IMG/VR virus record: IMGVR_UViG_2541047795_000004
DNA from: a virus
Taxonomy: Duplodnaviria > Heunggongvirae > Uroviricota > Caudoviricetes
Reading direction: 5' to 3' (one strand)
Length of the DNA stretch: 44,950 bases
The notes under the pieces were generated by a model. It saw nothing but the letters and a program-made list of their open reading frames with translations. It did not search any database and was not told the origin of the DNA. Position 1 is the first letter of the stretch. Every line of letters begins with the position of its first letter. This document shows positions 2,795-21,329 of the stretch, one piece after another. The position numbers and the translations under genes are program-made.

Positions 2795-5387
2795 TTGCAT
2801 ATTCCTTAGCCCAGCGGGGCAGTGATAATGTCTTAATAGCTGGCCATTCATCGGTATTCAGGCAGTCAGACAGGGTTCGCAGATTGCGGTGATATTCCTG
2901 TTGACCTGCCAGTTTTGCTTCTTCGCCCATCATGAAAATTTCAACCGGATAACGTCCGCATTCAATAGTTGTGCTGGCAACCAGAAAAACGAAAGTTGGC
3001 TGCACTCCAAACTGTGCTTCATAACCGTCACTGTAGAATGCATCCTGAACGTGATAGCGGTAGTCGTAATAAGCGGTTTTGAATCGTTGAATATCCGCCG
3101 TAGTTTTCACGTCCATGATCCAGTGAAATTCAGGGATAATTTTGTCCGGACGGCACCGACACAAAATTCCTGTTTCAGGATCTTTCCAGTAAATTGATGA
3201 TTCAGCGTGTCCGGCGCTTTCAACAAGCCATTGCCCCAGCGGCAAAGCCATAACGCTTTGATACATGAGTTCAATTTTCCGGCCTTCTTCCGCAGTGATA
3301 ACCGTTTTTCCTGTGCTTGCGCATTCCATCAGAAACGCTTTCTCTTCTTCTTTTCCGGCGTTTGTACGGCGGTTAAATTCAGGTGCTACGATAAAGCGGT
3401 TACTGAATTCTTCCGGTTCAAGTACCCGGCAGTGGAAAGCAGTTCCTAAATCGAGCGTTTTTGTCTTTGTGGTGTCCACGGGGGCATTTTTACGCCACAA
3501 ATATAGTGCCGGAGTATCAGCAATGTCATCGAGCTGAGACTTACTGATACCGGGACCCGCGTGGTAATTCTCATTCGAAATTCCGTAATAAATACCTGGC
3601 TCTATGTCTTCTACGATTACGGGATCTGCGACTTCGCCAGTTTCATCACTGCAATCGCGATGCGGATCGCTGCCAGCATTCTCATTGTGCGGATGTTCAG
3701 CGCCTTCCATTTCCTCCGGATCATTTTCCTTAGCTTCAACCTGACTCTCTTCATCGAATGTTTCCTGGTATGTTGCGTCGCCCATCACCGCACCACAGTC
3801 AGGGCAGTTATCCCCGCCAGTCTGGCCGCAGGCATTGCAGGCTATTTCCGGTTCCTGTTGCACTACTGGCTCAGGTTGATTCATATCTGGGCTGGTTTTT
3901 TCCGTTTCTGGCTGGTTCTGGTACACACAATCGCGAGTCTGGATCCCCTTTACCCATTTCGGATCGTTCGGGTCGCTAATTCCGTCAACAAATTCACCAC
4001 GTGATGCAGCAAGCAATTTATCGGCATCGACAGGATTTTTTGATGGAATGTTTTTCCGGGCTTCATGGAGTTCTGCCCGCAGTTCCTGATATTTCGCATC
4101 AACAGAATTTACCTGTGACTGAGCATCCAGCGGCTGCGTGTCCTGATGATGTTCAGTTGCGTCCGGTTCCATTGTTTCAGCCTCTCCCTGTTCAACTGCC
4201 GTTGTTCCAGATGGTTGCGGTTTTTCTTCATCATCCTGTTTTCCTTCTTCTGTTACTCGCTGCGGCATCGGGGCAGAGGAGCGACCGCAGGCAATATCCA
4301 CGATTTCCGGATCAGGGTTGGCATGATCGGTTTCAGTCAGTGCTTTGTTCAGATATTCAGTGACGTGCGCGGGGATGACCTCGATCCCAATTGGTGCTTC
4401 TTTTACGGACGCAACCACGATGGCGCGGGAATAATCCAGCCCGCCAGGCATGGTGATGAATTTGTCGCGGAAAACAGAAAAGGGCGGTTTATTTTCAGCG
4501 ATAATTTCCTCAATGCGTTTAGCGTGTGCCGGATGAAGGTTATAGATGTCCAGATCCATTGAACGGGCCAGTACGCCAGTGGCTACGTCGCGCGCCAGTG
4601 ACGTCAGATCGTGTACGAAACCTTCGCCGCGATCGGTGAGGTTTCCGCCGCCAGCATTAGCACCGGAAGCCGTGCGAGTGATGTGTGAAACACGATTACC
4701 CTTCATCCACTCTTTTGTCAGCAGTCCTCGATCGGTGTAGTCAGCGTTCAGGTATGCTTCGAAAAAAGCAGTTATCAGTCCCAGGTTTGAATTACCAGGA
4801 TTAGGGAAAACTTTGTCAGTGTCACGAACCAGTTTGTGGAGTTCGCGAATTTCCAGCGGGTCGAGCAGGCTGGTTTTGTGGGAAACAGCCAGGGCAGTAA
4901 CAGCCGGTAGTTCTTCAGCCCGAGCAATGTGTAATGCCTGGAGTCCGTCGCGTGAAACGTGCGTTACCGGTTTTTCGCTGCCGTGTTGAGCAAGCCAACG
5001 AATGGGCAGTTCCTGGCCAGAAATTGGGAGTAGCATATTCTCCTCAATCTCAGTCATGTCTTCGCCGTTGACGTTGGTATTGCCTTGATAGTGAGCGTTG
5101 TCTGGTGCTGCTCCCGGTTTTAGTTCCCATGTCATGGAGTCTTTGCTGAGTTGATAGCGTTCACTCCAGGTAAAATCGATCTCACCTTCAGCGGGCAGGT
5201 CATTAACGACAGGAAAATTCGTGGCAACAGCTTTAAAATAGCTGCTCAGTTTTTTACCTGACTTAACGATCAGGTAGTCCAGAGTGGCACAGGTCGATTC
5301 AAAATCGTTGCTTGCCCACAGGACGACGTCAGGTTCACCGGATGATTTTTTCGCTTTCCGTAACAGGAAGAGTGGTTTTGTGCTCAT
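2787..5387 (-). CDS. recE: RecE exonuclease VIII, 866 aa
   Basis: 866-aa ORF whose C-terminal region ([22 protein letters not shown]...) matches RecE as recalled; sits upstream of and overlaps recT. Confidence 0.93.
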
Positions 5388-5488
5388 TGTTTTTTAACCT
5401 CAACTCAGATTAAAATTCGTTTTGTTCAGTGAATGATCTTGCCGGATACACACTGTTCATAGCCTGCGCCATACGCAGGCTATTTCTT

Positions 5489-5764
5489 TCAGATTTCACC
5501 TTTTAATTTCATTGCAATTAGAGTTGCCAGAAATTCGGCTTTTTTTTCTGCGGGCAGATTCTTTCCGATATGCACCAGGCACATTTTTTTGACACCTTCA
5601 TCAAGTGTTTTTACGTTGCCTGATGGACCATCGATATCAACCACAGTGAATGGGGTTTCTTTATTTTCTGTTTTAATTACGTAGCCAATGCGCTTTCCTT
5701 CCAGATTCACCTCGTGAACAATGTCATCGGTAGTTACAACAGTGGCTTCATAATTGGTAATCAT
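5489..5764 (-). CDS. racC: RacC-like small protein, 91 aa
   Basis: Start at MITNYEATVVTTDD with an AAGGAG Shine-Dalgarno; position upstream of recE. Confidence 0.75.
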   Translation of the reverse strand: MITNYEATVVTTDDIVHEVNLEGKRIGYVIKTENKETPFTVVDIDGPSGNVKTLDEGVKKMCLVHIGKNLPAEKKAEFLATLIAMKLKGEI

Positions 5765-8982: not shown

Positions 8983-9153
8983 AGGTGAAAACAAATGGCT
9001 TCAAACTGGATAAAGCTCGAAGTTATTACGCCGGATAAGCCGGAAATATTCAGGCTTGCTGAGATTCTGAATATTGATCCAGATGCCGCATTAGGGAAAG
9101 TCATTCGCTTCTGGGCATGGGCGGATCAACAAATGATAGACGGTAACGCAGAG

Positions 9154-9174
9154 TGTAACGCTCGAGGCGTTACA
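9154..9174. repeat. 21-bp palindrome TGTAACGC-N5-GCGTTACA, copy 2
   Basis: Perfect 8-5-8 inverted repeat inside the replication gene; a GGTAACGC half-site lies at 9142-9149. Confidence 0.7.
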
Positions 9175-9361
9175 AAAAGTGCAATAGACCGTATCACTTT
9201 TATGGCTGGTTTTGCTGATGCGTTAATTCAGGTTGGATGGCTGGTCGAAAGTGATGGAGTGCTTTCACTACCAAACTTTGAGCGTCATAACGGAAAAAGC
9301 TCGAAAAAAACGGGCGGTTACAAACGAGAGAGTTACAAAAATACGCGAACTGAAGCGAAAA

Positions 9362-9382
9362 GGTAACGCTGCCAGCGTTACA
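9362..9382. repeat. 21-bp palindrome GTAACGC-N7-GCGTTAC, copy 3
   Basis: Same half-sites as copies 1 and 2; further GTTACAAA and GCGTTACC half-sites nearby (9317-9340, 9398-9406). Confidence 0.65.
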
Positions 9383-9790
9383 CAAACGGATCAAAAAGCG
9401 TTACCAGAGGAAGAGGAAGAGGAAGATATAAATACTGATCTCCCCCTAAATCCCCCTCGGCAAAAACGAGCGTCTAAACAATTCGAGCCGGAGGCCATTG
9501 CTCTGCCCGACTGGTTGCCAGAAACACTCTGGAATGAGTGGGTCCAGTTCAGGCAGGCATTGCGAAAACCGATTCGAACGGAGCAGGGCGCTAACGGGGC
9601 GATACGGGAACTGGAAAAATTCCGCCAGCAGGGTTTTACCCCTGAGCAGGTGATTCGACACAGCATCGCCAATGAATACCAGGGCTTGTTCGCGCCGAAA
9701 AGTGTTCGGCCTGAGACGTTGCTCCGACAGGTTAACACTGTCTCGTTTCCGGACAGTGCGATCCCGCCAGGCTTCAGGGGGTAACTGACC

Positions 9791-10537
9791 ATGAAAAATA
9801 TTGCGACAGGCGGCGTTCTGGAACGTATCCGCAGACTGGCCCCGCCACATGTAACCGCGCCATTCAGGACGGTGGCGGAGTGGCGCGAGTGGCAACTTGC
9901 AGAAGGCCAGAAACGTTGCGAGGAGATCAATCGCCAGAATCGTCAGTTGCGGGTGGAAAAAATTCTGAATCGCTCCGGCATCCAGCCGTTGCACCGCAAA
10001 TGCTCGTTTTCGAATTACCAGGTGCAGAACGACGGCCAGCGATACGCGTTGAGCCAGGCGAAATCCATCGCCGATGAACTGATGGTCGGGTGTACAAATT
10101 TTGCGTTTAGCGGAAAACCTGGTACCGGAAAAAACCATCTGGCGGCGGCTATCGGGAATCGCCTGCTGAAAAACGGTCAGACAGTGATTGTGGTTACCGT
10201 GGCTGATGTTATGAGTGCTCTACACGCCAGCTATGACGACGGGCAATCAGGCGAAAAATTTTTGCGGGAACTGTGCGAAGTGGATCTGCTGGTTCTTGAT
10301 GAAATTGGCATTCAGCGCGAGACAAAAAACGAGCAGGTGGTACTGCACCAGATTGTTGATCGCCGGACAGCGTCGATCCGCAGCGTGGGGATGCTGACAA
10401 ACCTGAACTATGAGGCCATGAAAACATTGCTCGGCGAGAGGATTATGGATCGGATGACCATGAACGGCGGGCGATGGGTGAATTTTAACTGGGAGAGCTG
10501 GCGCCCGAATGTTGGTCAGCCAGGAATTGAGAAGTAA
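9791..10537 (+). CDS. ydaV: DnaC-like helicase loader (IstB-like AAA+ ATPase, YdaV-like)
   Basis: Walker A SGKPGTGKNHLAAAIG and Walker B DLLVLDEIG; directly follows the initiator-like gene. Confidence 0.85.
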   Translation: MKNIATGGVLERIRRLAPPHVTAPFRTVAEWREWQLAEGQKRCEEINRQNRQLRVEKILNRSGIQPLHRKCSFSNYQVQNDGQRYALSQAKSIADELMVGCTNFAFSGKPGTGKNHLAAAIGNRLLKNGQTVIVVTVADVMSALHASYDDGQSGEKFLRELCEVDLLVLDEIGIQRETKNEQVVLHQIVDRRTASIRSVGMLTNLNYEAMKTLLGERIMDRMTMNGGRWVNFNWESWRPNVGQPGIEK

Positions 10538-11724: not shown

Positions 11725-11884
11725 GCCAAATTAATAATCGGAACTTGGTGAAGTGAAAGAGAAAGCATAACCCAAATCTGAATAATTAAATTCAGCACTG
11801 TGAATAAAATAGAGTCCTTAACCGGAGGAATTCCTGCACTCTCAAATCATCAGGAGGCCGCCCGAAAAGGCGGTGGAGATAATA

Positions 11885-12403
11885 ATGGAAATAACTAAAG
11901 AACGATTATTGGAAATAGCAAATCTTAGTGATGGGGCATTAAGTGATGGGAGAATTATTTCTCCTGATGCTTATGAATCAGTTACAAGTATAGAAATAAT
12001 AACGATGGCTAGGATGCTTCTTGCGCGATTCAAAAAAGAATATAAAAAACAGGTAGATAGCAATGCTAATATATATGATATTTTGGACGGTTGGGGAGCC
12101 TGGGCTGTAGCTGAAAATAGTTCTATTGATTGGCAGGAAATAGCTGATAAATATAAAAATGTTGTTCCTCATGGTAAAAAATCACGTCGTCAGTGCAGCA
12201 ATGATGAAGGGGGTATAATTGATACCTGCATGTTGAGGCTTAAACAATATAGGATAGATGACTATGAGTTAATTATCGCTCATTTTGTTATGGGAGTTTC
12301 ATTGCGTTGTTTAGCTAAGATAAACGAATGTTCAGATGGTAAAATAAGGAAAAAAATGCAAATGGCAATGGGATTTATTGCAGGTTGTATCTATTACCGT
12401 TGA
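11885..12403 (+). CDS. Q-like antiterminator paralog (QuuD/phage-82-type resemblance), AT-rich
   Basis: WGAW motif followed by a Cys-containing segment and a C-terminal helix, parallel to the Q gene at 16732; GGTGGAG Shine-Dalgarno before the ATG at 11885. Confidence 0.45.
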   Translation: MEITKERLLEIANLSDGALSDGRIISPDAYESVTSIEIITMARMLLARFKKEYKKQVDSNANIYDILDGWGAWAVAENSSIDWQEIADKYKNVVPHGKKSRRQCSNDEGGIIDTCMLRLKQYRIDDYELIIAHFVMGVSLRCLAKINECSDGKIRKKMQMAMGFIAGCIYYR

Positions 12404-12433
12404 TTTTTTAAGGCGAGTTTCTCTCGCCTTAAA

Positions 12434-13867
12434 TTAACTACAGTAACTATTGATTAAGTGAGAACTGAGCCAAGAGGTAATTGCATTCGTAGCATGTTCA
12501 TCAAGCATTGAGAATCCTAATATGATCATTATAAATGAAATCAGCAAAGTCAGAATCACAACGAATGTGGCTATAATCTGATAAGCTTTGTATGCTTCTC
12601 TTAATGGTGTGACTGCAAGATTCTCATAGTCAGTATCATCAAGAAAACCATATAGTTTATCTCTCCAGACTAGCCTAGTATTATCAAGTATCTTAAAGTA
12701 ATTTTTATTTATGAAGAGAGTTGTAACCTGAGATATAAAAATATATATAGATAACGCGAAGAACATATATGGGAATATGTTATTGGTTATATTAATCTTT
12801 GATGCGTCTAGCGCATATTTTATTGCAAATAGACTTATAACCAGAGCCAGATCTTTCCAAAGAGCGGATGTGATGTCTTTAGACTGACTTATTATTTTTT
12901 GCGTGTCTTCAGCTAAGGTTTTCCTTAGATCGGACAGAGATTTAATAGTCTCTCTGCTGCTAGCGCGAATGTGGGCCTTATATAGTAATTTTGCTGACTC
13001 AAAGGCCATAGGGAGTTTTTTTGGTAAACCCTCACAGAAGGATACATACTCTGGCCATTCTCGTGCTAACTCACTTGTGAAGAAAGTATGTTTGAGTTCA
13101 ATCTCATTGCCCTCAATAAAGATCCAGTTTATTACAGTTTGTAAAACTGAATAGTCGGAAAGCAGAATGTCTGGATCTCCATAAATTAATTTTTTTGGTG
13201 GCTTTCCAGTTAAACAAATTGATTTCTTTTCATCTGCTAATAATTCATTAACGAGAGTGCGACAAAGCATATTGCAGGAAACTTGTAACCATTTTTTGAA
13301 AAAGTTGTCCTCTGCCTCAGGCATTTTATAAAGTACCCAAGGAGCTATATCAGATGCAGGCATGAACTCACTAGAATAGAATTTAACGTAGCTCTGTAAA
13401 TTGATTGAAGTTCGTACGGTTTCATTAGATTCAATTTTTTCTGGAGCATGGTTCCATGGCTCAACAGAATATCCTAAAGTTTCAAATCCATGTTTCAAAC
13501 CGAGAATATTCACTTTATTGGTTATTGATACTAAATCATCATTGTGTAGAAAAACATTCCACCCTTCGAGCGTAAAAATATACCTGTTATTTTCGAATGC
13601 AATGCATTTTAGCGTAATGTTAAGTTTATCACCTTCACTGCATGACGATGGTTTTACTTCATCATTACAGTCATCTTTAACAGTAATTTCAATCCAATTT
13701 GGTACGTTTTCGTAAACGTACTGCCAAAGAATGAGTGCATCTTTGTCCATTTTGGCAGAAATTAGAACGCGCGCAGAATCATTTTTTATTGATTCTGATG
13801 CCAAAAATTCAGGGTCTTTCCTTGACGCCTGTATAGACTCATCGATTTTTTGAAGTATCGATGTCAT
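12434..13867 (-). CDS. Cassette gene B: uncharacterised 477-aa protein, large soluble N-terminal domain plus C-terminal transmembrane helices
   Basis: Hydrophobic helices IFPYMFFALSIYIFISQVTTLFI and IIATFVVILTLLISFIMIILGFSML near the C-terminus; GAGGA Shine-Dalgarno 10 nt before the ATG at 13867; overlaps gene A by 29 nt; AT-rich. Confidence 0.7.
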   Translation of the reverse strand: MTSILQKIDESIQASRKDPEFLASESIKNDSARVLISAKMDKDALILWQYVYENVPNWIEITVKDDCNDEVKPSSCSEGDKLNITLKCIAFENNRYIFTLEGWNVFLHNDDLVSITNKVNILGLKHGFETLGYSVEPWNHAPEKIESNETVRTSINLQSYVKFYSSEFMPASDIAPWVLYKMPEAEDNFFKKWLQVSCNMLCRTLVNELLADEKKSICLTGKPPKKLIYGDPDILLSDYSVLQTVINWIFIEGNEIELKHTFFTSELAREWPEYVSFCEGLPKKLPMAFESAKLLYKAHIRASSRETIKSLSDLRKTLAEDTQKIISQSKDITSALWKDLALVISLFAIKYALDASKINITNNIFPYMFFALSIYIFISQVTTLFINKNYFKILDNTRLVWRDKLYGFLDDTDYENLAVTPLREAYKAYQIIATFVVILTLLISFIMIILGFSMLDEHATNAITSWLSSHLINSYCS

Positions 13868-14897
13868 CAGTAATAATCCTCGCAGTAGTAACAATAATTT
13901 GTTTTCGCCCATCATCTAAGTTTCTTATTTCTGGACGGTCATCTTCATTATAACTAATTACTACACTTTCTGCAGTTTCAATTTTTCGTCTTGGTGGTTT
14001 ATGAATGCCATCTGCTTTTATAGTAAAGGATTCGCCTTCAATACCAGCATTTTTTGTTTGAGTTTTGAATGTGTTGAGAATTGGTGATTTTTCATCTAAC
14101 GGCCCAAAAATGCTGGTCAATAACGGAGAAGCATCTTCAGGATTATATTCGAAATCAGCTCTGCTTAAAACTTCATATATTTTATTTACGCCGCTTTTTT
14201 GAATTGACTCTGGCAATAATTCTTTATGCCTTTTGAAGGTTATTTTCAGCGCATCAATAAGCTTATTGCAAAGTTCAATTTCAGAGTTGACTCTTTTAAC
14301 ATTTAAGAAGCCTTTAAAATATCCTGAAATATTGGTTCTTTTACTCCTGTCTTTTACAATAACTTTCCCGCCTTTCCCACTTGGATCAAGTTGAATTAAC
14401 GCTATTTTTTGCATTGCCTCAGCTTTTTTTACGAAAGTTTCATGAAATCTTTCTAAAGTAGGCATTTGTTCTTCAGATAACTTTTCGTCAAGAACATAAC
14501 GAACCACATCTTCATTATCGTATTTTATAATTGCATAGAATTTTTCCTTATCTGAAACCAATTCAAATAAGAAAAAGCATCCCATACTCGTGTTACCGCT
14601 AGAATGGTGTGACTGAAAATCACTGGCCAGTAGCTTCGATTGTTCTGTAAAACAATTAGCTTCAGCATCTGCTTTATCTCTAATGATACGCAGGATTCTT
14701 TCGGTATTTGAATTCTCCAGAAAAGTGAAAAGATTTCCTTTCAGTGAAGATTTGATACGTTCAAGAAAAAAATCCACATGCTGAACTGGTTTTATTTCTT
14801 TGAGAAGTGTCGGTGCTTCAAGATTCTTACCTACAACGTGAAAGATCATTTTATTAATGACTAAATTTTGTACGTCTTGTTCAGAAAGGAAACTCAT
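13839..14897 (-). CDS. Cassette gene A: uncharacterised 352-aa cytoplasmic protein, tentative weak resemblance to NA37/YejK-type nucleoid-associated proteins
   Basis: GGAG Shine-Dalgarno before the ATG at 14897; no transmembrane segment; the NA37 resemblance is by eye only and unverified. Confidence 0.7.
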   Translation of the reverse strand: MSFLSEQDVQNLVINKMIFHVVGKNLEAPTLLKEIKPVQHVDFFLERIKSSLKGNLFTFLENSNTERILRIIRDKADAEANCFTEQSKLLASDFQSHHSSGNTSMGCFFLFELVSDKEKFYAIIKYDNEDVVRYVLDEKLSEEQMPTLERFHETFVKKAEAMQKIALIQLDPSGKGGKVIVKDRSKRTNISGYFKGFLNVKRVNSEIELCNKLIDALKITFKRHKELLPESIQKSGVNKIYEVLSRADFEYNPEDASPLLTSIFGPLDEKSPILNTFKTQTKNAGIEGESFTIKADGIHKPPRRKIETAESVVISYNEDDRPEIRNLDDGRKQIIVTTARIITDDIDTSKNR

Positions 14898-15226
14898 CCT
14901 GACTCCATAATCAAGCAGATTAGAACTATGACTAGTCTAGTATATGCATCTTTTGGTGCGTACGCAAAAGTTCTTAAACTCAAAATGTTATCGCGGATAG
15001 ATCTTTGTAGAGTCAGTGATTGGCGCAGGTAGGTGGTAACAGCAGACAAATAGCTGCGGATACTTGAGGCTATCTGCCTCGGGCATGAACATCAAAGGCA
15101 GATAGAGAAAAGCCCCAGTTAACATTACGCATCCGGCAAGACGCTTAACATTAATCTGAGGCCAATTTCATGCTTTGCACATGTAGGTTAGCCTCTTACG
15201 TGCCGAAAGGCAAGGAGAAGCAGGCT

Positions 15227-15382
15227 ATGAAGCAGCAAAAGGCGATGTTAGTCGCCCTGATCGTCATCTGTTTAACCGTTATAGTGACGGTACTGGTAAC
15301 GAGGAAAGACCTCTGCGAGGTACGAATCCGAACCGACCAGACGGAGGTCGCTGTCTTCACAGCTTACGAACTTGGGGAGTAA
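15227..15382 (+). CDS. hok: Hok/Gef-family type I toxin, 51 aa
   Basis: MKQQKAMLVALIVICLTVIVTVLVTRKDLCEVRIRTDQTEVAVFTAYE is a Hok-family sequence with one transmembrane helix; a 7-bp stem-loop follows at about 15389-15407. Confidence 0.8.
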   Translation: MKQQKAMLVALIVICLTVIVTVLVTRKDLCEVRIRTDQTEVAVFTAYELGE

Positions 15383-15845
15383 GAGGACCGGCGGGGAGAA
15401 ATCCCCGCAACCTCTGATGTATTATGCATCCTCAACGCAGCCACAGTTAACCTGATTGGCGGGTTTATTTCATCTGTAAATATATTTATAAAAATAATGC
15501 CCACGCACAGCATAAAACAAAAAGTATTACAGATAAAAAAGGAACGTAATGTGCAGATTTGTTGTTTTCCATATTTACTCACCTTAATATGATTAACCCT
15601 GATAGGGTTGTTATTTCAGCGGTTTTCAAATGAGATATTATGGTGATCTGACAAATTTGCATAACATTAAAATTTAATTTGTTTAACCGCTTTTAATAAT
15701 AAGCGTTGTTTGTATCCCAGCAATCTGTTGTTTGGTTTTTATTCCATTAAGGTGGGGGCTTTACACTGGAGCCAGTTTATTTATACTTCATACGTCAGCC
15801 TGAACAACTGGCATCTGCTGCGCTGCGCCATCGAGAGATTGAGAA

Positions 15846-16445: not shown

Positions 16446-16735
16446 TGGTGGATTTACGTAAAGCGGCGCGGGGGCAGATGTGCACCGTCAGAATTCCTGG
16501 CTACTGCAATCACGATCCGGAAACGTCTGTGCTGGCGCATTACCGACTGGCGGGAACGTGCGGAACAGCGACAAAACCACACAATATGCAGGCGGCGATT
16601 GCCTGTAGCTCATGCCACGATCTAATCGACGGGCGGGTAAAAACCATCGATTACACCAAAGAAGAATTACGCCTGATGCATGCAGAAGGTGTTCTTCGCA
16701 CACAAGAAATCTGGAGAAAGGAGGGATATTTATGA
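16445..16735 (+). CDS. YbcO-like Cys-rich putative nuclease (DUF1364-like), 96 aa
   Basis: Cys pattern C..C....C...CSSCHD and size characteristic of nin-region YbcO-type proteins. Confidence 0.55.
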   Translation: MVDLRKAARGQMCTVRIPGYCNHDPETSVLAHYRLAGTCGTATKPHNMQAAIACSSCHDLIDGRVKTIDYTKEELRLMHAEGVLRTQEIWRKEGYL

Positions 16736-17274
16736 TTTACCCAACGAATACAGGAAAAAGCGGAGAACACCTTCGTCTCACCACGCTGGAAAGTGTCTGG
16801 ATTCAGGGAAAACTACGTATGTGGGGGCGCTGGTCGTATATTGGCGGCGGTAAGACGGGGAATATGTTCAACCAGTTGTTGGCCTCTAAAAAGCTGACAA
16901 AAACGGCAATTAACGAGGCGCTCCGGAGGATGAAAAAAGCAGGTCTGAACAAGTCTGAACTTGAGGCTTTTTTGCGGGATATGATTAACGGTAAGCAAAA
17001 GAGCTGGCTGGCGCATTGTACTGATGCAGAGGCGTTATGTATTGATCGGGTCATAAGTGAGGTGCTGGCAGAGCATCCAGGATTGATTAGCGTCCTTCGG
17101 CAACGGTATGAGGGGCGGGGGATGACCAAACGCAAAATGGCTGAATTGCTAAATGATGCACACCCAGAGTGGTGTTTTAGCACATGCGAAAAGCGAATTG
17201 CTAATTGGTTGGCCGTTGCTGAGTATGCGCTATACATTCCCATGCGAGAATCATTCGCTCAAAAAACGGCTTGA
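16732..17274 (+). CDS. Late-gene antiterminator Q, 180 aa
   Basis: ATG at 16732 with GGAGGG Shine-Dalgarno, overlapping the upstream stop; WGRW motif; immediately upstream of a promoter-like region, a terminator, tRNAs and the lysis cassette. Confidence 0.6.
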   Translation: MIYPTNTGKSGEHLRLTTLESVWIQGKLRMWGRWSYIGGGKTGNMFNQLLASKKLTKTAINEALRRMKKAGLNKSELEAFLRDMINGKQKSWLAHCTDAEALCIDRVISEVLAEHPGLISVLRQRYEGRGMTKRKMAELLNDAHPEWCFSTCEKRIANWLAVAEYALYIPMRESFAQKTA

Positions 17275-17340
17275 TTTTTTACGCATAAACTGCTTCAATT
17301 TTGCTACGCTTCGCAAAGCTGTATCGCGAGGCGAATCAAG
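17275..17340 (+). promoter_or_regulatory. Putative late promoter (PR'-like) and qut region
   Basis: Position only: TTGATT at 17275 followed 17 nt later by TTCAAT, directly after Q. Elements are weak. Confidence 0.3.
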
Positions 17341-17360
17341 CGCAATTAAACTTTAATAGA

Positions 17361-17390
17361 ACCCGCCATCGAGCGGGTTTTGTTGTTTCT
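17361..17390 (+). terminator. Intrinsic terminator (tR'-like) after Q
   Basis: Hairpin ACCCGC-CATCGA-GCGGGT followed by TTTTGTTGTTT. Confidence 0.55.
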
Positions 17391-17627: not shown

Positions 17628-17703
<76 letters not shown>

Positions 17704-17706
17704 TAT

Positions 17707-17781
<75 letters not shown>

Positions 17782-19871: not shown

Positions 19872-21329
19872 ATGAATACATCTCATGTAAGAGTTGTTAC
19901 TCATATGTGTGGGTTCCTGGTTTGGCTCTATAGTCTTTCAATGTTGCCACCAATGGTTGTAGCATTGTTTTATAAAGAAAAAAGCCTGTTCGTTTTCTTT
20001 ATAACTTTCGTTATATTTTTTTGCATTGGTGGCGGAGCGTGGTATACAACTAAGAAATCTGGCATTCAATTACGTACCCGTGATGGGTTTATTATAATTG
20101 TAATGTTTTGGATTTTGTTTTCTGTTATTAGTGCATTCCCTTTATGGATTGACTCAGAACTTAATTTAACGTTCATTGATGCTCTGTTTGAAGGGGTTTC
20201 TGGAATAACAACAACAGGAGCAACTGTAATTGATGATGTTAGTTCATTACCTCGGGCATATTTGTACTATCGGTCACAGTTAAATTTTATAGGTGGTTTA
20301 GGAGTTATTGTTCTGGCGGTTGCTGTATTGCCATTATTGGGTATTGGTGGTGCAAAGCTTTATCAGTCAGAAATGCCGGGGCCATTTAAGGATGACAAAC
20401 TCACTCCCCGCCTGGCCGATACGTCACGGACACTGTGGATAACTTATTCTTTATTAGGTATTGCTTGTATTGTCTGTTATAGACTTGCAGGAATGCCTTT
20501 GTTTGATGCTATTTGTCACGGGATTTCCACAGTTTCGCTTGGTGGTTTCTCAACTCATAGCGAGAGTATCGGATATTTTAATAACTATTTGGTTGAGCTG
20601 GTGGCTGGTTCTTTTTCCCTGCTATCGGCTTTCAACTTCACTCTTTGGTATATTGTTATTAGCAGGAAAACGATAAAACCTTTAATCAGAGATATTGAAC
20701 TTCGTTTCTTTCTGTTAATAGCCTTAGGGGTGATCATTGTTACCTCTTTCCAGGTCTGGCATATAGGTATGTATGACTTGCATGGAAGTTTTATTCATTC
20801 GTTTTTTCTTGCCAGCTCCATGCTCACTGATAATGGTTTAGCTACGCAGGATTATGCAAACTGGCCCACGCACACGATAGTGTTTTTGCTGTTGTCAAGT
20901 TTCTTTGGGGGATGTATAGGTTCAACTTGTGGTGGAATTAAGTCACTTCGATTTCTTATACTTTTCAAACAAAGCAAACACGAGATAAATCAGCTTTCTC
21001 ATCCCAGAGCGTTGTTGAGTGTAAATGTAGGAGGGAAGATAGTTACAGATCGTGTAATGAGGTCTGTATGGAGTTTCTTTTTTCTTTATACTCTCTTCAC
21101 GGTGTTTTTTATACTGGTGTTAAATGGTATGGGATATGATTTTCTTACATCATTTGCAACAGTGGCTGCATGTATTAATAATATGGGATTAGGTTTTGGG
21201 GCTACTGCATCGTCATTCGGAGTGCTTAATGACATTGCAAAATATTTAATGTGCATAGCTATGATTCTTGGTCGCCTTGAAATTTATCCTGTTATTATAT
21301 TGTTTTCAGGTTTTTTTTGGCGCTCCTAA
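19872..21329 (+). CDS. trkG: TrkG potassium-uptake membrane protein (moron)
   Basis: 485-aa polytopic membrane protein from MNTSHVRVVTHMCGFLVWLYS, matching TrkG as recalled; AT-rich with AT-rich flanks. Confidence 0.9.
   Translation: MNTSHVRVVTHMCGFLVWLYSLSMLPPMVVALFYKEKSLFVFFITFVIFFCIGGGAWYTTKKSGIQLRTRDGFIIIVMFWILFSVISAFPLWIDSELNLTFIDALFEGVSGITTTGATVIDDVSSLPRAYLYYRSQLNFIGGLGVIVLAVAVLPLLGIGGAKLYQSEMPGPFKDDKLTPRLADTSRTLWITYSLLGIACIVCYRLAGMPLFDAICHGISTVSLGGFSTHSESIGYFNNYLVELVAGSFSLLSAFNFTLWYIVISRKTIKPLIRDIELRFFLLIALGVIIVTSFQVWHIGMYDLHGSFIHSFFLASSMLTDNGLATQDYANWPTHTIVFLLLSSFFGGCIGSTCGGIKSLRFLILFKQSKHEINQLSHPRALLSVNVGGKIVTDRVMRSVWSFFFLYTLFTVFFILVLNGMGYDFLTSFATVAACINNMGLGFGATASSFGVLNDIAKYLMCIAMILGRLEIYPVIILFSGFFWRS

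Follow-up and report, generated by a model that had tools for sequence, protein, structure and literature searches.

The window analysed here, a stretch of 44,950 nucleotides of viral DNA (IMG/VR record IMGVR_UViG_2541047795_000004), corresponds to a Rac-type prophage integrated beside ttcA; E. coli Ecol_316 carries it with 100% identity, as do some two dozen further complete genomes. At positions 11885-12403 it carries a gene, here called long-Q, for a Q-type antiterminator family protein with an N-terminal extension. Analysis of this gene and its relatives suggests, with a probability of roughly 0.5, that long-Q forms a three-part module with a convergent anti-phage cassette (12434-14897) and the 12-mer GCGTACGCAAAA, and that after induction the protein binds this site and shuts the cassette off. 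The parts of the module and the locus on its right are as follows.

11885-12403, plus strand: long-Q gene, an intact open reading frame (ORF) of 172 amino acids starting with ATG, with GGAG at 11875-11878, seven nucleotides 5' of the ATG.
11885-12067, plus strand: N-terminal extension of about 61 amino acids that marks the long-Q lineage and matches PHROG 3323 (unknown function; E=3e-14).
12068-12403, plus strand: Q domain (residues 62-172), with the motifs WGAW, PHGKK and C..DEG..ID and the helix-turn-helix SLR..AK...CSDG.IRK.
12434-13915, minus strand: second cassette gene, encoding a putative membrane effector (longest ORF 493 amino acids; 477 in RefSeq).
13839-14897, minus strand: first cassette gene, encoding a YejK/NA37-like nucleoid-associated protein of 352 amino acids, matched over its whole length by PF04245 (NA37; E=1.2e-12, 48 bits).
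14939-14967, minus strand: predicted leftward sigma-70 promoter of the cassette (-35 TTGCGT at 14967-14962, spacer of 17 nucleotides, -10 TATACT at 14944-14939).
14958-14969, plus strand: the 12-mer GCGTACGCAAAA, a predicted Q-binding element made of an 8-bp palindrome followed by four A residues.
15058-15232, plus strand: hok/sok toxin-antitoxin locus (Rfam RF01794 sok, 99.4 bits; annotated Hok/Gef coding sequence).

Judged by its domain matches, the protein encoded at 11885-12403 is a true member of the Q21/Q933-type antiterminator family. PF06530 (Phage_antitermQ) matches residues 62-169 over model positions 3-110 of 118 (E=1.3e-33, 115.9 bits, cut-off 26), PHROG 79 ('Q-like') matches with E=5e-33, and a profile of the long-Q family recovers the phage 21 Q structures 6P18 and 6JNX (E=2.8e-6). 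These matches bear out the original prediction, made from the letters of the window, that a Q-like protein is encoded here. The RefSeq entry, WP_001586995.1, is named 'antiterminator Q family protein', and a second Q-family gene is by itself ordinary and already on record there. Residues 62-172 are 48-59% identical to annotated late Q proteins of Stx1a and Stx2a (Shiga toxin, Stx), SfII, mEp460 and Klebsiella phages and 34% identical to the Q of VT2-Sakai/933W, and neither PF03589 (lambda-type Q) nor PF06323 (phage 82-type Q) appears among the Pfam results for long-Q at E<=1. An identity as an extracytoplasmic function (ECF) sigma factor, the alternative named in the original prediction, was rejected: TIGR02937 aligns with the C-terminal helix-turn-helix alone and scores 12.3 bits (E=0.097) against a cut-off of 42.9. 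That alignment is consistent with the published resemblance of the phage 21 Q fold to sigma region 4 (PMC6606751). The ORF is also as AT-rich as had been claimed, with 33-35% GC compared to 49-50% in the flanks; the cassette has a similar composition.

In what follows, long-Q denotes full-length homologues of 170-185 amino acids with the N-terminal extension, and short Q denotes homologues of 113-121 amino acids without it. Long-Q homologues were found only in Rac-type prophages of E. coli and Salmonella, with 65-99% identity, and 68 of 5,426 complete E. coli genomes contain one. The extension (residues 1-61) matches PHROG 3323 only and is absent from all short Qs; a tblastn search with it yielded no match in sequenced phages, and a BLASTP comparison with the ORF that a Q-less Rac prophage has at this place aligned the first 13 residues only (E=0.027). 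An AlphaFold2 model of long-Q built from a 58-sequence alignment predicts a helical extension with low confidence, and its mean predicted local distance difference test score (pLDDT) of 55 is too poor for a fold search. In the Q domain, the residues aligned with the DNA contacts of phage 21 Q as defined in PMC6606751 (S139, L140, R141, D151, G152 and R155) are kept in 95-100% of long-Q sequences, and the same holds across long and short forms. Positions that are invariant among short Qs are kept in long-Qs at 85% in the DNA-binding half, compared to 69% in the half aligned with the RNA-exit-channel loop of phage 21 Q.

The ratio of nonsynonymous to synonymous substitution rates (dN/dS) across six diverged alleles is 0.09-0.35 in the Q domain, where the synonymous rate (dS) is 0.5-1.9, and 0.16-0.42 in the extension. 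Long-Q is under purifying selection in both domains and is selectively maintained. The suggestion that the gene might be a recombination scar therefore does not hold: the ORF is intact, dN/dS lies between 0.09 and 0.42, and the exact 12-mer is kept at long-Q loci.

The 12-mer GCGTACGCAAAA is present as a single copy in the window, where none is expected (100 shuffles). Every long-Q locus for which the region upstream of the cassette was available has it exactly once, on the plus strand and 5' of the cassette, in DNA that is otherwise unrelated among these loci. It also occurs in five sequenced phages whose short Q precedes a convergent cassette, and in 42 of 50 short-Q genome loci, recovered with one genome for each species from a broad range of Enterobacterales genera, where it always lies on the same strand as Q and 0.62-2.65 kb downstream of it. 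Long-Q had been described as an orphan with no late operon downstream; the absence of the operon is literally correct, but a motif of the cognate-element type, specific to the family, lies beyond the cassette at 14958-14969, in a layout that recurs in these 42 related loci, and the gene is not an orphan. A reverse scan of IMG/VR for the 12-mer yielded 82 evaluable loci, of which 40 have a Q on the same strand 0.64-3.6 kb upstream. The rest, inspected by eye, are mostly isolated copies without a late-promoter flank, although at least one locus, L095, has the flank yet no Q within 4 kb upstream.

The palindrome within the element varies with the Q allele: GCGTACGC accompanies the recognition helix CSDGTIRK, CGGTCCG accompanies KDEKLIRIE, and ACGATCGT is found in 933W. 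In the leader of VT2-Sakai/933W the place of the 12-mer is taken by another palindrome with an A-tract, ACGATCGTAAAA, and distant Qs (35-38% identity) with the helix KDEKLIRIE instead of CSDGTIRK have CGGTCCGCAAA at the 12-mer position. ACGATCGTAAAA and CGGTCCGCAAA are candidate binding elements of their Q alleles. Such allele-specific palindromes, each with the shared late-promoter leader downstream, lie at these sites:

L027, about 1188-1199.
L074, about 8225.
L075, about 1623.
L077, about 8907.

Known Q-binding elements lie in the spacer between the -35 and -10 hexamers (PMC6606751). We infer that GCGTACGCAAAA is the binding element of this Q subfamily because of its position in such a spacer, its covariation with the Q allele and the retention of the helix-turn-helix residues.

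The promoter context of the element differs between long-Q and short-Q loci. In short-Q loci the 12-mer lies in the late-promoter spacer and is followed, in order, by 7 nucleotides, a -10 hexamer (TAAyCT or TATCGT), a conserved tTAAGAGTGGTcAC block and an intrinsic terminator; this right-hand part shares homology with the leader that follows Q in VT2-Sakai/933W. Of 47 short-Q loci, 42 have the initially transcribed TAAGAGTGG block and the adjoining terminator, whereas both are missing from all six long-Q loci examined in detail, the window included; a profile of the right-hand part of the late promoter found no match in long-Q loci. The rightward context of the 12-mer in the window is degenerate, with a TAAACT at 14975-14980 that is 2 nucleotides too close and no clear -35. 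On the opposite strand, the -35 hexamer TTGCGT of the predicted cassette promoter is the complement of part of the 12-mer, and the geometry TTGCGT-16/18-TAnnnT is present in five of the six long-Q loci and 31 of the 47 short-Q loci.

The ORF runs into a convergent cassette, as originally predicted, and this consists of two overlapping genes on the minus strand. RefSeq names the product of 13839-14897 a 'nucleoid-associated protein'. The 493-amino-acid protein has C-terminal transmembrane helices (hydropathy segments at about 380-403 and 441-475); it has no family match in Pfam, PHROG or PADLOC and is a hypothetical protein in RefSeq. PADLOC 2.0, which is older than the description of the PANGU systems, gave no match for the three proteins of the module in the window. 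A YejK-like nucleoid protein together with a toxSAS or membrane effector constitutes the PANGU types I and II of abortive infection (bioRxiv 10.64898/2026.04.06.716658), and the cassette at 12434-14897, a two-gene operon of a YejK-like protein and an effector with a C-terminal transmembrane region, resembles type II in its architecture. This exact cassette is limited to 29 of the 5,426 complete E. coli genomes, and at least seven kinds of cassette occur in long-Q loci:

Kind 1 (the window): NA37-like protein and the 493-amino-acid protein.
Kind 2: NA37 and a protein of 406-410 amino acids.
Kind 3: DUF6731 and a protein of 159 amino acids.
Kind 4: a three-gene set.
Kind 5: a single gene for 332 amino acids.
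Kind 6: proteins of 199 and 311 amino acids.
Kind 7: proteins of 161 and 273 amino acids.

A survey of the interval between Q and the 12-mer in 53 loci identified about 20 cassette types, with 99 of 101 ORFs on the minus strand, directed towards Q. Among them are Kiwa, PD-Lambda-5, PDC-M53, a methyltransferase system, proteins of the RelA/SpoT type and numerous uncharacterised pairs, NA37 with a partner being the commonest type. Several cassette families are common to long-Q and short-Q loci, with 23-71% protein identity. The interval between Q and its predicted element is a defence hotspot, as seen in L020, L023-L026 and L028-L073.

All retrieved long-Q loci have the same order: an early-right gene (DUF977 or a neighbour), a common leader, long-Q, one to three convergent genes and then hok. 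Nucleotide homology among them breaks off close to the 3' end of long-Q and is regained at about 15049 (15048-15054 by blastn) at hok; hok/sok belongs to the conserved Rac backbone and forms the right edge of the variable region. Long-Q does not lie directly 5' of the late operon of lysis and morphogenesis genes, where the late position is occupied by a gene of the DUF1133 family; in the sequenced phages examined, the short homologue occupies the late-gene position. The late Qs that co-occur with long-Q are of four kinds (DUF1133, lambda-type PF03589, phage 82-type PF06323 and short PF06530), and long-Q is therefore not co-adapted to one late system. A promoter consensus scan of the plus strand upstream of long-Q detected no promoter-like site, and the early rightward operon, after induction, is probably the sole source of the protein.

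The favoured reading of long-Q is that of a regulator. In the lysogen, long-Q would not be made, because it has no predicted promoter of its own and lies in the repressed rightward early operon, and the cassette would be transcribed from the leftward promoter whose -35 lies within the predicted binding element. After induction, long-Q would be produced, bind GCGTACGCAAAA and occlude the -35, so that the abortive-infection cassette would be off during the lytic growth of the prophage itself; antisense transcription into the Q gene would be removed as well. Since the lysogen has to express the cassette while Q is absent, binding at the -35 would plausibly result in shut-off. Rightward antitermination of the classical kind, starting from the 12-mer, is less likely, because the six long-Q loci examined in detail lack the initially transcribed block and the terminator. 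In the short relatives, the order of Q, convergent cassette and predicted element is the normal layout of late control, whereas the long-Q module is placed between DUF977 and hok, among the early-right genes, and in Rac-type prophages the late genes would be controlled by DUF1133 rather than by long-Q. A broader version holds that in a large lambdoid-Q subfamily the Q gene and its element enclose the defence hotspot and the late switch protein turns prophage abortive infection off when the prophage enters lytic growth, with relief from antisense transcription into Q, long-Q being a copy that has lost antitermination and is kept purely as an off-switch for cassettes in the early region of Rac-type prophages; we regard this extension as tentative and doubtful in its full scope.

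Several observations weigh against the off-switch. W70, G71, W73, W83, K99, D107, G109, I112 and D113, in the putative polymerase-contacting half, are invariant in long-Qs, which is unexpected if the job of the protein is DNA binding alone. Rightward loading of long-Q at the 12-mer is possible: the window, L008 and L014 have plus-strand -10-like hexamers 17-18 nucleotides from the start of the 12-mer, and possible displaced remnants of the late-promoter block were seen by eye further to the right. The role of the 12-mer as a predicted Q-binding element is based on position and covariation, and it could be kept mainly as the cassette promoter's -35 and upstream A/T tract, whatever long-Q does. 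The silence of long-Q in lysogens is itself an assumption of the mechanism, and the mechanism assigns no role to the 61-amino-acid N-terminal extension.

The features around the late position of the prophage are:

16732-17274, plus strand: DUF1133 late Q candidate (PF06576, E=1e-107; PHROG 753 'Q-like', E=1e-79).
17305-17328, plus strand: promoter-like block directly 3' of DUF1133.
17360-17385, plus strand: terminator following this block.

The block 3' of DUF1133 is conserved with Salmonella (TACGCTTCGCAAAGCTGTATCGCG), the terminator and the late terminator of SfII are nearly identical, and tRNA genes (two by Rfam, 17628-17778) and then the lysis genes lie 3' of DUF1133. The DUF1133 protein is thus a credible late regulator of the prophage, and the original prediction was right that the prophage contains two Q-like genes. 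It had also called them paralogs, and here the alignments are not significant: BLASTP gives E=1.2 with WGAWA/WGRWS alone aligned, and hhalign reaches E=0.059 when run with the single sequence and E=0.012 (3.5% probability) when run with the family profile. The two are linked solely because the DUF1133 protein narrowly passes the PF06530 cut-off (27.1 bits, cut-off 26), and they are very distant relatives at best rather than duplicates. As a side observation, the block at 17305-17385 resembles a diverged 12-mer region and may hold a DUF1133-type binding element. The best sigma-70-like site of the region, TTTACA-16-TATACT at 15760-15787 on the plus strand (10 of 12 matches), lies directly 5' of DUF1367, YbcO and DUF1133 and could be the own promoter of the late-regulator operon.

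If long-Q were instead a true antiterminator, it would load onto RNA polymerase at a rightward promoter at about 14950-14985 and allow read-through of the hok/sok terminators into DUF1367, YbcO and DUF1133, in a Q-to-Q cascade that would replace N and supply the N function missing from Rac-type phages. The orientation of the element relative to Q is that of genuine late promoters, the -10-like TAAACT lies at 14975-14980, four plus-strand terminator-like sites precede DUF1367 (15449-15773), and the core motifs of the polymerase-contacting half are kept. Nonetheless, we consider such a cascade unlikely: the initially transcribed block that distinguishes short-Q loci (42 of 47) is found in none of the six long-Q loci, the spacing to the -10 is off by 1-2 nucleotides and the hexamer is absent from L002 and L015, and no terminator lies close 3' of the element, unlike at late promoters. 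Read-through would also be needless with the TTTACA-16-TATACT site directly 5' of DUF1367, Rac-type prophages without long-Q share the hok-DUF1367 backbone, and long-Q co-occurs with four unrelated late-Q types. A less probable proposal still is that long-Q acts in trans on lambdoid phages with the same element (SfII, mEp460 and some Stx phages), either as a cross-activating helper or as an exclusion factor or decoy by which late transcription of these phages would be mistimed or blocked. The DNA-recognition residues are those of short Qs, phages with the element are common in Enterobacterales, the gene is located in a defence hotspot, and one prophage (L203/L204) combines long-Q with a short Q that has the same recognition helix; however, action in trans leaves unexplained why all long-Q loci examined retain the 12-mer beside the cassette, no predicted promoter would express long-Q in a lysogen, and neither a PADLOC match nor an experimental hint points to it.

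The module has its layout and several cassette types in common with the late regions of short-Q phages, the parts of a rightward promoter have decayed and the fusion to an unrelated N-terminal segment looks like the product of recombination, all of which would be expected if long-Q were a functionless remnant, the scar of a Q-plus-cassette block captured from a late region. Such a remnant is very improbable, as the ORF is intact in all sampled alleles although dS in the Q domain reaches 1.9 (dN/dS 0.09-0.35), clade-specific residues are conserved, the extension is itself under purifying selection, and the gene is carried by 68 complete E. coli genomes and by Salmonella.

Two small structures flank the long-Q gene:

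11725-11884, plus strand: conserved 5' leader with a hairpin at 11858-11873 and the Shine-Dalgarno sequence GGAG at 11875-11878.
12410-12430, no strand assigned: inverted repeat AAGGCGAG-TTTCT-CTCGCCTT, read from the sequence, in the 30-nucleotide gap between the convergent genes.

The leader is 80-100% conserved in seven long-Q loci. Its part at 11766-11874 (about 110 nucleotides), in which CCTTAACCGGAGG lies together with the GC hairpin and the ribosome-binding site, recurs with 77-88% identity in 2,838 of the 5,426 E. coli genomes, where the prophage genes that follow it are unrelated; its hairpin is therefore not Q-specific. This part has the look of a module for translation initiation or of a mosaic boundary. 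The hairpin that the original prediction had pointed out (CCGCC/CGAAAA/GGCGG) does exist at 11858-11873, but shuffled sequence folds just as stably (z=-0.28), and the hairpin belongs to this generic leader. Substitutions in its arms among relatives are one-sided and break pairs, and neither leader nor hairpin was matched when the leader and the complete window were scanned with Rfam. A boxB/nut-like or regulatory structure was rejected on the grounds of no covariation, no excess stability and membership of a generic leader. Between the convergent genes, the stem-loop at 12410-12430 was considered as a bidirectional terminator and rejected, as no T-run lies 3' of the stem on either strand; the terminator scan missed it because the T-run precedes the stem. 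In other long-Q loci the convergent genes overlap and hence leave no intergenic gap.

The L203/L204 pair, a single E. coli prophage, contains long-Q (5001-5522) and a short late Q (9579-9929) with the identical recognition helix CSDGTIRK, and a convergent cassette follows each Q; its long-Q has the motif variants WGNW and PHANK. Cross-talk between the two proteins seems unavoidable. Elsewhere in the window, a replication-initiator-like gene (8995-9784, plus strand), 5' of a DnaC-like gene, is split in two overlapping frames and annotated as frameshifted in RefSeq, so that an otherwise complete-looking prophage may be defective in replication. The RalA antitoxin small RNA (Rfam) at 1557-1735 adjoins ralR, and the potassium-transporter gene trkG (19872-21329 in the annotation of L001), AT-rich with 38-39% GC and 3' of the lysis genes, is a second compositionally foreign insert.

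Prophages with abortive-infection systems must avoid triggering these systems themselves at induction, and the layout described here offers a concrete candidate answer to how they do so. In the window, and likewise in dozens of prophages across many genera of enterobacteria, the predicted Q site overlaps the promoter of a defence cassette. A rule for finding defence systems also emerges, namely to inspect the content between a Q gene of this subfamily and GCGTACGCAAAA, by which the cassette types of the hotspot, most of them uncharacterised, were found. The binding elements predicted for three Q alleles include that of the Q933 type of Stx phages and bear on Shiga toxin expression. No description of the layout of Q, cassette and element or of the hotspot, the long-Q lineage or the allele-specific palindromes was found in the searchable literature, and nothing relevant on DUF6731 or two-Q prophages beyond general papers on the heterogeneity of Stx late promoters.

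Among characterised systems, phage 21 Q and 933W Q share with long-Q the PF06530 domain, the WGAW and C..DD.G motifs and the conserved DNA-contacting positions of the helix-turn-helix, as well as a short allele-specific DNA element, in this subfamily a predicted one, in the spacer between -35 and -10. Unlike them, long-Q has a 61-amino-acid extension, does not lie 5' of lysis or late genes and has an element without a pause block and terminator. The element itself is a palindrome with four A residues, whereas that of phage 21 is a direct repeat of TGAGCA. Closer are the short late Qs of SfII, mEp460, Stx1_499, Stx2a_1447/WGPS2 and Klebsiella ST846-OXA48phi9.1, with 48-59% identity over the Q domain and an identical 12-mer. 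The order of Q, convergent cassette of one to three genes and 12-mer is also that of these phages. Some cassette families are shared as well: L014 and Stx1_499 have homologous cassettes, and the NA37 pair occurs widely. The Qs of these phages, however, are 113-121 amino acids long and in the late position, and 3' of their element come a -10, the TAAGAGTGG block, a terminator and finally the stx or lysis genes, all of them missing from long-Q loci. The DUF1133 (PF06576) protein of the same prophage is, like long-Q, annotated as Q-like and matched by PF06530 (marginally, versus strongly for long-Q), but it has no significant direct similarity to long-Q and occupies the canonical position, where a promoter-like block and a terminator of its own directly follow it.

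The likeness of the cassette to type II PANGU is one of gene architecture; no family match was detected for the effector in the window, and its nucleoid protein is a divergent one. The hotspot as a whole recalls those described in P2 and P4 prophages (Rousset et al. 2022, PMC9122126; Vassallo et al. 2022, PMC9519451), in which diverse defence systems are exchanged at a fixed position of a temperate phage between conserved borders. It differs from them in that the borders are a regulator gene and its predicted DNA site, and in that the promoter of the cassette overlaps this site.

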